The notes below the pieces were generated by a model, which worked only from the letters and a program-made list of their open reading frames with translations, ran no database searches and was not told the DNA's origin. A program made the translations under genes and the position numbers. Source: an uncultured Candidatus Rokubacteria bacterium (GTDB lineage Bacteria; Methylomirabilota; Methylomirabilia; Rokubacteriales; CSP1-6). Taken from it: a DNA stretch of 64,000 nt. Shown here in pieces: positions 50,572-58,946 of the stretch. Every line of letters begins with the position of its first letter. Positions within the stretch are counted from its first letter, which is position 1. The DNA is taken from assembly GCA_963743355.1 (NCBI GenBank), contig CAVUPM010000002.1, positions 2,631,766 through 2,695,765 of the forward strand, given 5' to 3'.

Positions 50572-51754
50572 CTACGCGTCCGTCATCACTGTCCGGTAGT
50601 GGTGCCAGAGGGCCCGGTTCGTCGTCTCGTCGGTGACGTGGGAGACGACGCGGCCCTCGGCGTCGACGTACTCACGGTTCAGGCCGCGGCCCAGCAGCAG
50701 CCACTCCACGGTGCGGGCGTGCAGGCCGGCCTGGTTGCGGCTGGCCACGATCAGGTCCTCCGGCATCAGGAATGAGGCGGGCCCCATGCCGGCCTCGGCC
50801 ATCCGCAGCAGGCGGCCGTTGAACTGCGGGACGCCGGTGAGGAACATCGGCGTGTGCCAGTGGACGCACTCCTCCACGCTGACCGGCTCGACGATGGCGA
50901 TGTTCGTCTCGCCGAGAAAGAGATTCGGGAAGATCAACGCGTGGGCCGGACCCTCCATGATGCGCCGGCGCGTGATCTCCGGTCCGTCCCGGCGCTCCAG
51001 CGCGGCGACGTAGTCGGCGACCCCGGCGCCCGAGGCGTTGCCGAGCCACTCGAACGGGGCCTGGTAGCCGGGCGACCAGTCGATCTCGATGTGGCCGTGG
51101 CCCCAGTCGCGGATCACGGCCTTGATCGACTTCTCGTCGCCCACCACGCGCTGGTACTGGGTGCGGATCGACTTGAACAGGGCGCTGTGCACGAAGCCGA
51201 GGTGGTAGCCGTCGCTGTCGTTCTCGGGCAGCATCTTCCAGTTCGCGGTGCAGCGATGCTTCACCCAGCCCGCCGTCAGCTCGACCTCGCCGGTCGGGCG
51301 AGAGGTCGCACGAGCGGTCGATCAGCCTCGTGGCGGCGCCGAGGTGCTCGACGAGCGTCAGCCCCGTCGGACTCAGGCTCGCGAAGACGAAGCCCCGGTA
51401 GCTCGACACGCGCGCCGCCCGCGCCAGCCCGTGCGCGCTCTTGTCGAATGACGCGTAGCCGCCGGGATAGGGCACGCCGAGCAGCTCGCCGGACAGGTCG
51501 TAGGTCCAGCCGTGGTACGGACAGGCGAACGTACGGACGCTCCCGCGCTCGGCCGGGCACAGCATCGTGCCCCGGTGCATGCACCGGTTGACGAGCACGG
51601 CGATGCCGCCGTCCTTGCCGCGCACCATGATGACGGGCTCACGACCGATGGATCGGGTGACGTAGTCACCCGGGCGCGGGATCTCGCTGTCGTTCCCGCA
51701 GAATCGGTTGCCCCGCCTAGGATACCTGCTAAAAGTGTCACTTGCTTCCTCCAC
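50572..51754 (-). pseudogene. Rieske non-haem iron ring-hydroxylating dioxygenase alpha subunit; frameshifted and lacking its native N-terminus
   Basis: Rieske motif CMHRG…CPYHGW, then the catalytic domain in a second frame (…NWKMLPENDSDGYHLGFVHSALF…). Only about 55 aa precede the Rieske cysteines where about 80-100 are expected, and the first roughly 14 codons lie in AT-richer DNA immediately after a TAA. Confidence 0.7.
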
Positions 51755-51769
51755 TGCGCGCGCTTAGAC

Positions 51770-51795
51770 TAGGGGAACCTGGTGTTGCGCGCAGG
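51770..51795 (-). other. tRNA 3'-end-like segment (T-loop TTCGATCCC plus GC-rich acceptor-like arm), possible att core of the adjacent prophage
   Basis: The minus strand reads …CAGTTCGATCCCTGCGCGCAACACCA. No complete cloverleaf could be folded from the surrounding 110 nt. Confidence 0.3.
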
Positions 51796-51887
51796 GATCG
51801 AACTGGCAGAACATGAGTCCAGAGGATCCCTCCCTCGGCGCAGAAGCAATTCAACGTTCCCCTCATGCCGAGGGAAAGGTCTGCGCC

Positions 51888-52565: not shown

Positions 52566-53273
52566 ATGAGGAAGTCCAGTCAGAAGCGTCCTGTCCTTCG
52601 TTCGACTGATCGTCCTGTTCTGCGTTCGACCGATCCAGACGTCACCATCCGCCAGGAGCTGGGCGGGACAGTCTACGGCCTGCGCGGCAGGACCAGCCCG
52701 CACCTGCTGGCACTTCTGGAGGGGACTCGCTTCGACGATCCTCAGGAACGTGAGCTGGCCGAGATCGCCGGGCTCGTGCCCCGGAGGCCCACTGTGGAGT
52801 CTGTAGCGGCCCTGCCGCAGCCCATGCCCACCGGCCCGGCACCCGGTGCCCCCTCGCTGCCATCGCTGCCTGGCGAGCTCGACCAGGCCCAGTGGGACCT
52901 CTGGGAGCAGCAGTTCCGGGACGAACAAGGGATCGACATCGGCAGTGCCTTCGTGAAGGCTCCCAAGCTGGGCACCAAGGAGAAGCTACGGCAGTACTAC
53001 CTCACCTTGCTGCTCCCAGCCTTGGAGGCGAGAGCACCAGTGTGGTGGAAGGTCCTCAGTCTCCTTCACGAGAAGTCTCCTGCGGATCTCTCCTGGTTCG
53101 AGCTTGGTAGTCGGGAGCTGGCGCGAGTTGCCGGGGTTGGTAAGGGTCGAGTCAGTGAAGCGATTGACCACCTTCACGAGCTGGGGCTGATAGAGATGAA
53201 GAAGGGTTTCTTCAAGGACGGCAAGCCCAAGGAGGGTGTCCGTCCGCGGTACCGACTGGTAGCTCGGGCGTAA
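52566..53273 (+). CDS. Phage protein with a C-terminal winged-helix/HTH-like segment (possible replication or regulatory DNA-binding protein)
   Basis: 235 aa, RBS AAGGAGG. The C-terminus …LSWFELGSRELARVAGVGKGRVSEAIDHLHELGLIEMKK is HTH-like. It lies directly upstream of the GGGCCC repeat array. Confidence 0.45.
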   Translation: MRKSSQKRPVLRSTDRPVLRSTDPDVTIRQELGGTVYGLRGRTSPHLLALLEGTRFDDPQERELAEIAGLVPRRPTVESVAALPQPMPTGPAPGAPSLPSLPGELDQAQWDLWEQQFRDEQGIDIGSAFVKAPKLGTKEKLRQYYLTLLLPALEARAPVWWKVLSLLHEKSPADLSWFELGSRELARVAGVGKGRVSEAIDHLHELGLIEMKKGFFKDGKPKEGVRPRYRLVARA

Positions 53274-53436
53274 CGGGCCCCACCACGGGCCCGTGGGTAC
53301 TGCCCTTCTGGGAACGGCCCCGGCTACGGGCCCGTTGCTACAACGTCCTGGGGAACGGGCCCGCCACGGGCCCAATGCTTCTTCTCTCTAGGAGAATAAC
53401 AGAAGAACAACGATTGGGCCCGCCACGGGCCCGTGC
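53274..53436 (+). repeat. Array of four roughly 23-bp units, each carrying two GGGCCC hexamers (iteron/operator-like)
   Basis: ACGGGCCCCACCACGGGCCCGTGG, ACGGCCCCGGCTACGGGCCCGTTG, ACGGGCCCGCCACGGGCCCAATG, TTGGGCCCGCCACGGGCCCGTGC. Confidence 0.75.
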
Positions 53437-53449
53437 GCGAGGAGATACG

Positions 53450-53743
53450 ATGACCCCATACGAATTGACTGATGCAGTCGCGAAGAAGCTGGGTGTCGAT
53501 CATCGCCAGGCTTCAGCCGTTCTACGTAATCTCTACGCCGTCATGCGCGATGCATTGTGTGAAGGCGATGACGTCCCTCTGGATGGAGTCGGTCGTCTTA
53601 TCCCACGTGACGCACCCACACGAGTCTGCAGAATCCCAAACGGACCGCTCTGGACGGTTCCCTTCAGCATGACAGTCAAGCTCAAGCCATCGGCACGCTT
53701 ACGAGACCGTATGACGAACTCATTGATCAAGAAGAGTACCTGA
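53450..53743 (+). CDS. HU/IHF-like (bacterial histone-like) DNA-binding protein
   Basis: 97 aa. MTPYELTDAVAKKLGVDHRQASAVLRNLYAVMRDALCEGDDVPLDGVGRLIPRDAPTRVCRIPNGPLWTVPFSMTVKLKPSARLRD has the HU architecture (helix-turn-helix dimerisation region followed by a beta-arm with RNP). Confidence 0.7.
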   Translation: MTPYELTDAVAKKLGVDHRQASAVLRNLYAVMRDALCEGDDVPLDGVGRLIPRDAPTRVCRIPNGPLWTVPFSMTVKLKPSARLRDRMTNSLIKKST

Positions 53744-54236
53744 TGCCTACGGTCGACACCGAACATGACTACGGACGTCAGGTCCCCCCAGATCTGTACC
53801 TTGACCATCGTCGCCCAGGGTTCGCACAGTATGAACGTGATGGACTGATCTTCTACGACATCCCTACGAAGGCAGTCGTAATCAACGTTGACCCTGAGGT
53901 ACTGGCAGTCGCTTAACCTGTGCGCCCTAGGGCAGGGTGATCCAATCTTCAGCCCTCCCAGACCTACCCTATGGTTCGTGTTCAAGCCAAGGTCGCTAGT
54001 CTGCCCAGGTGCCTACTCGTATCCCTTCCGTACCGTAGCTGGACACGCTTAACCGTGTGCAGGAACCAAGTCCCGAGGAGAAGGGCCATGGTAACCACGT
54101 TCATCGCGATCGTGTGGGTAGCAGTACAAGTGCGGACGCTGCACTACGGTAGGTCACGTCACGGTTTACGTTCCCGAGACGTGCACGACTTCCTACGTGC
54201 CTGTCTACGTGCCGTCGGCCCACGGAGAGCTAAACC

Positions 54237-55776: not shown

Positions 55777-57194
55777 ATGTTCAGCGTCAGCCGTGCCGCT
55801 CGTGCGCTGAAGTTCATCAACAACCTGTCCCACGTTAAGGGGACCGACGCTGGGAAGCCATTCAACCTGCGCCGCTGGCAGAAGCAGCCTCTGGTCAAGC
55901 TGTTCGGCGCGCTCAACCCAGACGGCACTCGGCAGTACCGCACCCTCTGGTTGGAGTTCCCACGGAAGAACGGCAAGAGCGAGCTGTGTGCCGCTCTCGC
56001 TCTTCTCATGCTGTGCGGTGACGGTGAGATGGGTGCCGAGGTCTACGGCGCAGCCAGCGACCAGGACCAGGCCAACCTCGTCTTCGACGTGGCGGCCCAG
56101 ATGGTCCGGAACGATGCCGAGCTCTCCGCGAAGCTGGACGTACTCGATGCCGCCAAGCGCATCATCCACAAGGCCAACGGCTCGTTCTACCGAGCCATCC
56201 CGGCGGATGCCGGCGGATCGCACGGCTTCAATGGTCGGCGATCATTTTCGACGAGCTGCACGTCTGGCTCACTCCCAAGCCAGGAAGTTGTACGAGACGC
56301 TGACGACCTCTACCGGTGCCCGTCGTCAGCCCCTGTCATCGTCATCACGACTGCCGGGTACGACCGCACCTCGATCTGCTGGGAGATGCACCAGTACGCA
56401 TTGGTGTGCGGGACGGGATGATCGAGGACCCGTCGTGTCTCCCGGTGATTTACGCCGCTCCTGAGGATGCTGACTGGACGGACGAGAAGGTCTGGGCTGC
56501 AGCCAATCCGGCTCTCGGCGACTTCCGTGGGATCGACGAGATGCGGACCTTCGCTCGTAAGGCCAAGGCGTACCGTCGCAGCAGAACACGTTCCGTCAGC
56601 TGTACCTGAACCAGTGGGTCGAGCAGGCGACTCGATGGCTGGACATGTTCGCCTGGAGGAAGTGCAAGGGCAACGTCAGCGAAGCCGATCTCGCCGGGCT
56701 GCCCTGCTTCGGTGGTCTCGACCTCGGCCAGTCTGACGATCTCTCCGCCTTCGTACGGCTGTGGTGCCACCCAGATGGGCGCAAGTTCGTCCGGGCTAAC
56801 TTCTGGATTCCGCAAGCCGCCATCGAGCGATTCAAGACCAGGCCGTACGACGCCTGGCGACGCTCGGGCTGGCTCACGGTTACCCAAGGCGACATCACGG
56901 ACTTCGACCAGGTGGAGGCAGAGGTCGCGAAGCTCTGCCACGAGTCCGGTGTCCGGCAGCTGGCCTACGACAAGAAGTTCGCGTCCCAGCTCGCTCTGCA
57001 CCTACAGGGTCAGGGGATCAAGATGGTCGACACTCCGCAAGGTTTCCAGTTGAACGAGAGCCCTGAACAACCTGTCGGATCTGGTCGTTGAGGGAAAGCT
57101 GGTCCACGACGGGAACCCGATCCTGGACTTCCATGCGTCGAATGCTGTCGTCCGCACTGGACAGAAAGGGGAGATCCGCTTGGACAAGGAATAG
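55777..57194 (+). pseudogene. Terminase large subunit with multiple frameshifts
   Basis: ATPase and nuclease motifs are spread over three frames: …KPFNLRRWQKQPLVKLFG…WLEFPRKNGKSELCAALALLML…, …IIFDELHVW…, …PLVIVITTAGYDRTSICWEMHQYA…, …DFRGIDEMRTFARKAKA…, …WLDMFAWRKCKGNV…GGLDLGQSDDLSAF…, …LVVEGKLVHDGNPILDFHASNAVV…. Confidence 0.75.
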
Positions 57195-57306
57195 ACCCAG
57201 GAAAAGATCGACGGTATCTCCGCCCTCGCGATGGCGAATGCCCGAGCCATCACGCTGCCTCGCCACGTCTGCGTACGAGCGTGGCGTCATGATTTTGGGC
57301 TAGCCG

Positions 57307-58946
57307 ATGAGCCTGCGCTCACGTCTCCTGCAACTCCGCGACTACTTCGGTCCCTTCATCCTCGGCACTCCTGCCGGGGACAAGGCCATCCGGCAGATGC
57401 TCGGCTCAGGTCCGACAGCACGGGCATCACCGTTACCGAGGAGCCGTCCCTGAACCTGTCGGCCGTGTGGGCAGCCGTGATCTGCATCGGCGGTGACCTT
57501 GGCACTCTCCCTCTGCACCACTACGCAAAGGTGGGAGCTGGCAAGGAGAAGCTCCACTCCACACTCGACTACGTGCTGCACGACGAGCCCAACCCGGACA
57601 TGACCTCCTCGGTCTTCCGGGAGACGATGATGGAGTACGCCCTTCTCTGGGGTAACGCGGTCGCAGAAATCGTATGGGATAACGCTGGTCGCCCCGCGCA
57701 GCTCTGGCCCATCGAGCCTTGGCGAGTACGTCCTGATCGCGTGAACGGACAGCTGGTCTTCAAGGTCACCCGTGCGAATGGCCCTGAGGACACTCTGCTC
57801 GCAGAAGACGTGATCCACGTTCCGAACCTCACGCGTAACGGGGTATGGGGCTCGGTCAGTCATCCAACACGCCCGCGAGAGCCTGGGTCTCGCCATGGCA
57901 ACGGAGAAGTTCGGAGCTACGTTCTTCGGCAACGGTTCCACGTTCGGCGGTGTCCTGTCCCACCCACAGGAGTTGAGCGACAAGGGTCGCGAGAACCTGC
58001 GGGGAGCAGTCGAGAATCTGCACCGAGGAGTCGAGCGGGCTCACAAGTTCCTGATTCTGGAGGCTGGCGGCGATTACAAGCCCCTGGGCATTCCGCCCGA
58101 GGCCGCACAGTTCCTCTCCACTCGCCAGTTCCAGGTCACGGAGATCGCGCGATGGTTCGGTATCCCGCCGCACAAGATCGCTGACCTCTCGCGTTCGTCG
58201 TTCTCCAACATCGAGCAAGAGAACGCGAGCTACGTGCAGCAGGCCCTCACCAGGTGGATCGTCCGCTGGGAGCAGGAGCTACGCAGCGCAAGCTCATCGG
58301 TCGGCTGGAACGCAACACGCAGACCATCGAGTTCAACCTGACCGCGCTGCTCCGGGGCGACACCACGACCGGTTCGCCTCGTACGCCATCGGCCGTCAGT
58401 GGGGCTTCTACTCGCCCAACGACGTCCGGGAGAAGGAAGGTCTGAACCTGCTCCCCAAGGAATCGGAGACCAGTACATCCCGACCAACATGCCGGCACGG
58501 AGTGGCATCCTCCGGCCCAGCAGCAGAAGCCCGAGGAGAAGGACCCGACGGAGGAGCAGAAGTCCCTGGACCTCGGCCTAGCAGCTCGGGCAGTCACGTC
58601 GGACATCGTCCGCAGGATGCTGAAGCGAGAGGCGGACAAGATCCAGTCGGCAGTGGCCGACCCCGACACCATGGTGGAGCGGGTTAGGGACTTCTACGGC
58701 AAGTTCGCCGACACGTTCCGCTCGGCCCTGCTTCCCGCCTGCCAGATGCACTGTGCCATGACGGGTGATTCTCGCGCGCCGATGGCTCTGGCCGATGAGC
58801 TTGTGGCTGCCCACATCGCCACGTCGAGGAGGGACCTGGAGCACTGTGCTCCGGACGAGGTCGCCGCTCTGGTCGAGAAGTGGCATATCGAACGGCTGAA
58901 TGTGATTCCCGACCTTCTGCAACGAGGGACGATCAATGGAGCGTGA
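57307..58946 (+). pseudogene. Phage portal protein (HK97-family-like) with several frameshifts
   Basis: …STGITVTEEPSLNLSAVWAAVICIGGDLGTLPLHHY…, …ATEKFGATFFGNGSTFGGVLSHPQELSDKGRENLRGAV…FLILEAGGDYKPLGIPPEAAQFLSTRQFQVTEIARWFGIPPHKI…, …SYAIGRQWGFYSPNDVREKEGLN… lie in different frames. Confidence 0.75.

Follow-up and report, generated by a model that had tools for sequence, protein, structure and literature searches.

SaPI Rep reads its iterons through a C-terminal winged helix, and these iterons lie directly downstream of the rep ORF (PMC9371898). The SaPI origin is organized around a central AT-rich region, flanked on either side by oppositely oriented iterons (PMC9371898). In lambda, ori holds four iterons, each a 19-bp imperfect inverted repeat, which lie beside an AT-rich tract and within the initiator gene (PMC7466680). 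For Ltr-type activators, the bound direct repeats are "immediately distal" to the coding sequence of the activator itself, and its C-terminal part sets the specificity (PMC3753634).

The locus described here combines a wHTH gene with four dyad-symmetric sites that begin at its stop codon and lie on both sides of an AT-rich spacer. It was found in a window (the whole stretch of DNA that was analyzed) of 64,000 nucleotides, which covers part of the element only. We find that these sites very probably form the cognate cis-site array of the adjacent wHTH protein, as judged from sequence comparison with related loci.

Array and genomic setting

The GC content drops from ~0.70 to 0.58–0.65 at ~51.76 kb and stays low through the end of the window, and all convincing genes of this low-GC part lie on the + strand. 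Two unannotated small genes are followed by the 235-aa wHTH protein, the array, an HU-family gene, five small genes and HNH, after which come TerS, TerL, portal, protease, major capsid, adaptors, major tail protein and tail assembly chaperone. Judged by these genes, the region is phage-derived, and the prophage setting described in the earlier note stands. HNH, TerS and TerL, with a Terminase_4 small subunit among them, are located 1.4–2.3 kb 3′ of the array. The identities given to the two flanking genes also hold, with a wHTH protein upstream (weak MarR-type matches and a winged helix in the AF2 model) and an HU-family protein downstream (PF00216, 42 bits, E 8.5e-11; phrog_379). The word-indexed search returned no close homologue of the HU protein, and the small genes beside the array have no annotation and are not conserved between loci. 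The features are listed here by their positions in the window.

52566–53273, + strand: wHTH gene, 235 aa, with the RBS AAGGAGG before the ATG at 52566
53272–53295, no strand: Unit 1 (U1), AACGGGCCCCACCACGGGCCCGTG, with arms ACGGGCCC / GGGCCCGT
53313–53336, no strand: Unit 2 (U2), AACGGCCCCGGCTACGGGCCCGTT, with the outer AACGG…CCGTT complete
53354–53376, no strand: Unit 3 (U3), AACGGGCCCGCCACGGGCCCAAT, with a degenerate outer flank on the spacer side
53377–53412, no strand: AT-rich spacer, GCTTCTTCTCTCTAGGAGAATAACAGAAGAACAACG, 36 bp between U3 and U4
53413–53435, no strand: Unit 4 (U4), ATTGGGCCCGCCACGGGCCCGTG, the mirror image of U3, with a degenerate flank on the spacer side
53450–53743, + strand: HU-family gene, 97 aa, with the RBS GAGGAG at 53439–53444

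A repeat search recovers the four units as a single direct-repeat family of 23 or 24 bp each, in agreement with the roughly 23-bp units first proposed. Their form is dyad-symmetric, AACGG-GCCC…GGGC-CCGTT, and their start-to-start distances are 41, 41 and 59 bp. Seven exact GGGCCC hexamers lie within 53275–53432 (starts at 53275, 53287, 53328, 53357, 53368, 53416 and 53427); the eighth that had been counted, at 53316, is GGCCCC and forms the degenerate left inner hexamer of U2. U1 covers the last two bases of the wHTH stop codon and is an inverted repeat with fully (100%) complementary 8-nt arms, ACGGGCCC-N6-GGGCCCGT. In U3, the degenerate flank reads AAT where CGTT is expected. Together, U3 and U4 form a mirror-image inverted repeat with arms of 40 nt (53346–53385 and 53404–53443; 78% complementary), and 14 bp separate the end of U4 from the HU start codon. 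We note that a strict full-length dyad score (≥9/11) fails to separate the array from the 70%-GC background; the signal of the array is shared sequence plus covariation, not perfect palindromy.

The density of the hexamer is confined to this place. The 64-kb window holds 35 copies of GGGCCC against a mean of 47 in dinucleotide-preserving shuffles, and from the 28 copies outside the array only ~0.07 would be expected in 158 bp (Poisson P ~1e-12 for ≥7). The paired motif occurs nowhere else in the 64 kb, even when two mismatches are allowed, and the similar density elsewhere that the earlier note had named as grounds for refutation is not seen. GGGCCC, the ApaI site, is somewhat rarer than its dinucleotide content predicts, with at least 35 copies in 98 of 100 shuffles.

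The base composition of the array is uneven. Its units reach a GC content of 0.88 in 25-bp windows, which places them in the top 0.2% of the phage part, and to this extent the array is the GC peak it was taken for; the whole 165-bp span has a GC content of only 0.667 and is exceeded at 52.75 kb. Within the array, at 53376, lies the 40-bp window with the lowest GC content of the phage part (0.375), a value that is also the joint lowest of the 64 kb. The AT-rich element that was to be sought beside the array therefore exists inside it, between units 3 and 4. This spacer is pyrimidine-rich on the left and purine-rich on the right, with an internal inverted repeat (TTCTTCT/AGAAGAA), and may be a DNA-unwinding element or else a promoter. 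We discounted a small ORF in the spacer, as it is not conserved in relatives.

Several observations bear on the state of the prophage. TerL extends over several frames, of which 55777–56421 and 56645–57091 match different parts of phrog_9, and the portal has just 148 aa in one frame (in the region 55777–58341). The phage part of the window contains no integrase, and no tRNA gene is found in the window or the related loci. With TerL and portal split over frames and neither integrase nor tRNA in view, the prophage is probably defective or truncated, or else the assembly contains indels. The switch in GC content from ~0.70 to ~0.60 is abrupt (~51700–51820) and shows no recognizable att repeat; to the left of the phage DNA, the host Rieske dioxygenase (50572–51754) occupies two frames, seemingly without its 5′ end. 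Only ~0.75 kb of early region precedes the wHTH gene, which points to a deletion of the element's left part. Between a 57-aa gene and the phrog_13625 gene, ~320 bp without a convincing ORF (53917–54236, 0.6 kb upstream of HNH) could be another regulatory or packaging site.

The wHTH family and its sites

The exact database protein, P0001, begins at the ATG at 52566. Its N-terminal half is poorly conserved, largely disordered and poorly predicted in the AF2 model. The C-terminal part adopts a winged helix, with helices at residues 182–189 and 193–205 and wing strands at 209–212 and 228–231 (AF2 model and family alignment; pLDDT 94–95 across residues 161–210). The Pfam matches to MarR and MarR_2 are weak (19.0–19.4 bits against gathering cut-offs of 24.6 and 27), so that the protein scores below the threshold of the MarR family. 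Fold and sequence searches (PDB, BFVD) return generic winged-helix proteins only, for example MarR, ArsR, Fur and Rep proteins, and TubR-type wHTH centromere binders are among the fold matches. The protein has no helicase or ATPase domain.

The family is tiny. A word-indexed search of 5.8 billion proteins found two members, and 13 were recovered at E<1e-10 when 1.84 billion representatives were scanned in full with HMMER. Annotated phage genomes, searched by protein and by DNA, gave no match. IMG/VR, GTDB genomes and a metagenome contig collection, scanned with three family alignments, yielded no confirmed relative. A loose DNA pattern, AAGGTGTNGTT…ATGAAAGAC, gave more than 120 metagenome and 38 viral matches, all of which proved to be chance by a tblastn check. 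The PHROG matches of family members are weak (E 0.003–0.03) and cover the HTH only; five of the six families matched are replication-initiator or helicase-loader families (phrog_270, 186, 428, 391 and 8102), and no late-activator family was matched by any member. Likewise, 15 family members show no Pfam, PHROG or NCBIfam match to RinA, LtrA-C or ArpU. The family is without Pfam, NCBIfam or PHROG assignment and is undescribed, though the pair of protein and sites would work like known systems.

DNA was available for eight related loci (L002, L003, L005, L007, L009, L169, L170 and L171), most of them seen in two samples. The array is present in all eight and begins within the final codons of the gene or at the stop codon. 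Its layout is conserved: one to three 23-bp units, an AT-rich spacer and one further unit with a mirror-image degenerate flank. Similarly to U3, the last unit before the spacer has a degenerate spacer-side flank in the relatives, ending in …TAAG or …CAAG. Their spacers, to which that of the window is homologous, measure 27–62 bp and have a GC content of 0.29–0.48. The outer AACGG…CCGTT and the 23-bp length are mostly retained, while the inner core is specific to the locus and common to all of its units, as listed here.

Window: GGGCCC
L002: GGCGCG / CGCGCC
L007 and L009: GGCYAAC-N-GTTAGCC
L003 and L171: GGCAAY-N-GTTGC
L005: GGCCAAGTTGGCC
L170: GCCCAATAGTTRGGC
L169: GAGGCCAAATCGGCC

Across 25 aligned units, mirrored positions are complementary in 72% of cases, against 62% in shuffles (none of 500 reaches the observed value) and 21–41% in slid registers. 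Two-sided compensating changes are concentrated at columns 6/18, 7/17 and 9/15, which bears out, across the eight related loci, the proposal that each unit is a pair of inverted half-sites. Hairpin geometry varies among loci (stems of 4–10 bp, loops of 1–9 nt) at constant total length, which is more in keeping with duplex DNA bound by a protein dimer than with folded RNA or single-stranded DNA.

Comparison of the protein sequences reveals that the most variable positions of an otherwise well-conserved wHTH domain are 193, 194, 197 and 198 (i, i+1, i+4, i+5), all on one face of the recognition helix, in its N-terminal half. The window protein (GKGRVSE) and its closest relative P0002 (STNSTPG) are 67% identical over the aligned domain, and the differences between their sites fall precisely on the four inner base pairs of either half-site. 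P0008 (SPRSVPD) and P0005 (SLRSVPD) have the GGCAAY core in common, and P0009 (SRESART) shares GGCYAAC with P0021 (AKESVRT), despite an overall identity of 64% to P0008 and 55% to P0021. The core thus tracks the recognition-helix residues, the layout is kept and the half-sites change in a compensating way, and for these reasons we take the upstream protein to be very probably the reader of the sites. The earlier suggestion that the array is the target of its neighboring DNA-binding protein is strengthened accordingly by both the conserved layout and the step kept with the recognition helix. The HU-like gene, which had been proposed as a part of the system, drops out of it: no relative has an HU gene after its array, and the relatives' arrays have no HU, HNH or terminase genes nearby. 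A local contribution of the HU protein in the window may nonetheless exist.

The gene content around the relatives differs. In L002, and in L002 only, D5_N and DUF5906 primase-helicase genes are adjacent, just upstream of the wHTH gene; at most loci, no further replication gene is seen. The wHTH gene of L171 is in an early region, and the phage early region is the usual seat of replication genes. At 1–1065, L171 also encodes a large serine recombinase (Resolvase + Recombinase + Zn_ribbon_recom) on the opposite strand, 1.5 kb from the wHTH gene on its upstream side; it is the only integrase seen beside a family member.

Four relatives carry an extra site inside the wHTH gene, 340–380 bp before the stop (L003 3026, L005 2992, L007 4060 and L170 1678); the window gene has no internal copy. 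In P0009 the internal site makes a short peptide appear twice (GLTVSPL … RLTVSPL). The internal copy of L170 is the reverse complement of the copy at the 3′ end (NGLSIGPF vs NGPIDRPF), and hence the DNA, not the peptide, is conserved. In L170 the spacer block also runs the opposite way to that of L009, L007 and L005 (alignment scores of 33–40 reversed and 8–14 forward), and the spacer of the window is a two-armed, quasi-palindromic version of the relatives' block. Despite this inversion, the flanking genes keep their direction in L170, L009, L007, L005 and the window.

The T-rich spacers show a period of three, with T in the middle of 9–10 successive triplets (GTT GTT GTG TTT CTG TTT CTT …; L007 4463–4495, L005 3385–3415, L009 969–1000), a pattern reminiscent of the trinucleotide ssDNA-binding elements at bacterial origins. 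Further along, the gene after the array opens with a DNA stretch, ATGAAAGACCGCGAGCC (peptide MKDREPFF), that is shared by very divergent loci (gene starts at L003 3505, L005 3487, L007 4544 and L009 1032). This gene is intact only in L009/L010, where it encodes 137 aa without a family match. It is shortened to 48 codons in L003 and to 26 codons in L007/L008, and in L005 the similarity to L009 is lost soon after the start, from which it appears that these cassettes sit at the edge of an element remnant. P0014 (L005/L006) and P0009 (L007/L008), which have different cores, adjoin one and the same host gene, encoded on the opposite strand and homologous to DJ-1/PfpI, which hints at a common insertion locus.

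Proposed replication origin and alternative functions

We lean towards the array being a replication origin of the phage or element, of the SaPI/lambda kind, and place the probability of this reading at roughly 0.45; a gene switch is nearly as likely, and the two are compatible with each other. At such an origin, wHTH dimers would bind each 23-bp dyad-symmetric unit, with the two recognition helices of a dimer reading the outer AACGG/CCGTT plus the locus-specific inner core (GGGCCC here). Initiator dimers would occupy units 1–3 to the left of the 36-bp spacer and unit 4 to its right and would distort the DNA, whereupon the AT-rich spacer would melt and a helicase could be loaded. This helicase would be host-encoded here, and in L002 it may be the D5/SF3-type primase-helicase encoded just upstream.

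Several copies of a site unique to the locus lie beside the gene of the presumed initiator, an arrangement conserved in the eight related loci, and an AT-rich element lies between sites here and in all relatives. In fact, the AT-richest stretch of the phage part lies between the sites, which favors an origin, as does an architecture that matches SaPI origins and whose partly intragenic dyad sites recall lambda ori. The extra site inside the gene in four relatives points the same way, and so do the primase-helicase genes upstream in L002, the position of the L171 gene in an early region near a serine integrase, and the weak PHROG matches, five of six to initiator or helicase-loader families and none to late activators. 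The origin is further favored by the spacer itself, which ranges in length from 27 to 62 bp, holds no conserved −10-like element and no promoter in a consensus scan, and is inverted in L170 with genes unchanged, something a unidirectional promoter should not tolerate; the inverted spacer of L170 could, however, belong to a decaying copy. Counting against an origin are the missing ATPase domain of the wHTH protein together with the lack of other replication genes at most loci, and the nature of the matches, which are weak and HTH only in PHROG and generic wHTH regulators by fold. The layout also fits Ltr/RinA-type activators with repeats just past the activator gene (PMC3753634), and a weak −10-like GAGAAT near U3, with TAGGAT/GATAAT in L171, fits class II activation.

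These last points belong to a transcription control region, a reading that we consider a close rival of the origin, in which the wHTH protein would act as activator or repressor at a promoter in the spacer and drive the downstream operon (HU, small genes, HNH, terminase and structural genes), as Ltr/RinA/ArpU or Alt proteins do. The wHTH gene does head a long same-strand operon that runs into packaging genes, its best Pfam and PDB similarities are MarR-type regulators, and, as in Ltr proteins, the repeats begin directly past the coding sequence and specificity lies in the C-terminal domain (PMC3753634). The center of U3 is ~40 bp upstream of the start predicted from GAGAAT (53392–53397), a class II geometry, and TAGGAT/GATAAT occupies the corresponding position in L171. 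Against this, no sigma-70-type promoter was found in 51.5–55.5 kb by the consensus scan, the −10-like element is not conserved among the spacers, and both the variable spacer length and the inversion in L170 at constant gene direction sit poorly with a promoter. One unit always lies 3′ of the spacer, some loci have an intragenic copy, and no member of the family matches a PHROG late activator. The repeats are directly distal to the wHTH gene, but this gene is 1.6 kb from HNH/terS rather than directly upstream; terS is 2 kb from the repeats, and the relatives have no terS downstream. A centromere-like or packaging site, with the wHTH protein as adaptor and the HU-like protein as bending factor, is improbable. 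Both sopC and parS lie downstream of the gene of their binding protein, and lambda cosB involves an IHF/HU-assisted bend; similarly, the repeated sites here come after the binding-protein gene, an HU-family gene is adjacent, HNH, TerS and TerL follow within 1.4–2.3 kb and TubR-like centromere binders appear among the fold matches. However, no ParA/ParM/TubZ-type NTPase is encoded in the phage part of the window or in any related locus, the relatives retain the array with neither HU nor HNH nor terminase genes around it, and a Terminase_4 small subunit is already there to recognize a packaging site.

Hairpins of RNA or single-stranded DNA that would work between the two genes, as terminators, attenuators or processing sites, are very improbable. 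Every unit is foldable and the 191-nt region reaches −101 kcal/mol (z = −5.4), but palindromes give a high fold z-score anyway. U3 (53357–53373, + strand) and U4 (53432–53416, − strand) were flagged as terminator-like, each with seven G-C pairs and then a T-rich tail, facing one another across the spacer; yet a minus-strand terminator would have no gene to serve, and the T-tracts after the stems are not conserved, the relatives' units having no comparable stem plus T-run. What is kept across loci is the 23-bp length and not the hairpin geometry, and the units of a locus share one sequence that tracks the recognition helix of the protein. Rfam 15 gave no relevant match in the window at 51–56 kb (E≤1), and six related loci likewise had none that reached the gathering score. 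That the array is a GC-rich cluster arisen by chance or a dispersed host repeat (REP/MITE type), which the ~70% GC of the host DNA might suggest, has a negligible probability and is refuted by the counts: seven GGGCCC copies fall within 158 bp of a window in which the hexamer stays below its shuffle level, the paired motif is unique to the locus, and the relatives carry their arrays at the same position.

If the array is an origin, as we prefer, an extension of this reading by analogy is that the wHTH gene and array form a self-contained, portable initiator-plus-origin cassette, whose orphan chromosomal copies are kept as decoys against phage replication; we consider this unlikely. The specificity of such a cassette would have been rewritten repeatedly, with all sites changing in concert with four recognition-helix residues. 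The orphan cassettes L003, L005, L007 and L170, in which the rest of the element is lost, might then interfere with the replication of incoming related phages, as in the lactococcal 'Per' phenotype and lambda replicative inhibition.

Significance and comparison with described systems

In sum, an unannotated protein family can be paired with its probable DNA target purely from sequence. To our knowledge, mapped origins are few in phages of high-GC bacteria, as are regulators paired with their sites. The members of the family provide a small series of natural specificity swaps on a constant scaffold, in which four helix positions change and at least five cores result; it could help in studying or engineering wHTH-DNA recognition. 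Should the array be an origin, the gene and ~180 bp would constitute a compact replicon module for vectors. We regard the find as useful rather than surprising, because known phage and satellite origins, or late-promoter control regions, already have an architecture of this kind.

The likeness to SaPI/PICI origins lies in the C-terminal winged helix that would set specificity, in sites directly past the ORF, in an AT-rich center flanked on both sides, and in a specificity that differs between related elements. SaPI Rep, however, is a self-loading SF3 helicase with iterons of 5–6 nt, whereas the window protein has no ATPase domain and its sites are four 23-bp dyads in a 3+1 arrangement rather than evenly on two sides; no sequence similarity of the window protein to SaPI Rep was detected. 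Lambda O and ori-lambda resemble the locus in their four ~20-bp imperfect inverted repeats, each presumably bound by a dimer and located by an AT-rich tract, in sites that overlap the initiator coding sequence, and in an initiator without helicase activity that must recruit one. They differ in an N-terminal DNA-binding domain, in an ori that is located entirely in the middle of the gene and in an AT-rich tract that is on one side of all iterons; a lambda O-like PHROG was matched weakly by one family member only (phrog_391, E 0.0034).

With the Ltr superfamily (RinA, LtrC, ArpU) and Alt, the locus has in common that the gene closes the early cluster, that repeats follow right after the stop codon, that the C-terminal part sets specificity and that the downstream operon leads to terS. 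The Ltr proteins, in contrast, are small and basic, and their 7-nt direct repeats lie just upstream of terS; the window protein has no sequence match to them, one of its sites lies past the spacer, intragenic copies occur and the spacer differs in polarity among loci. Finally, the MarR family shares a similar C-terminal fold and dyad-symmetric sites of ~20 bp, but the window protein does not have the MarR dimerization helix bundle and carries instead a non-homologous N-terminal half of 130 aa.
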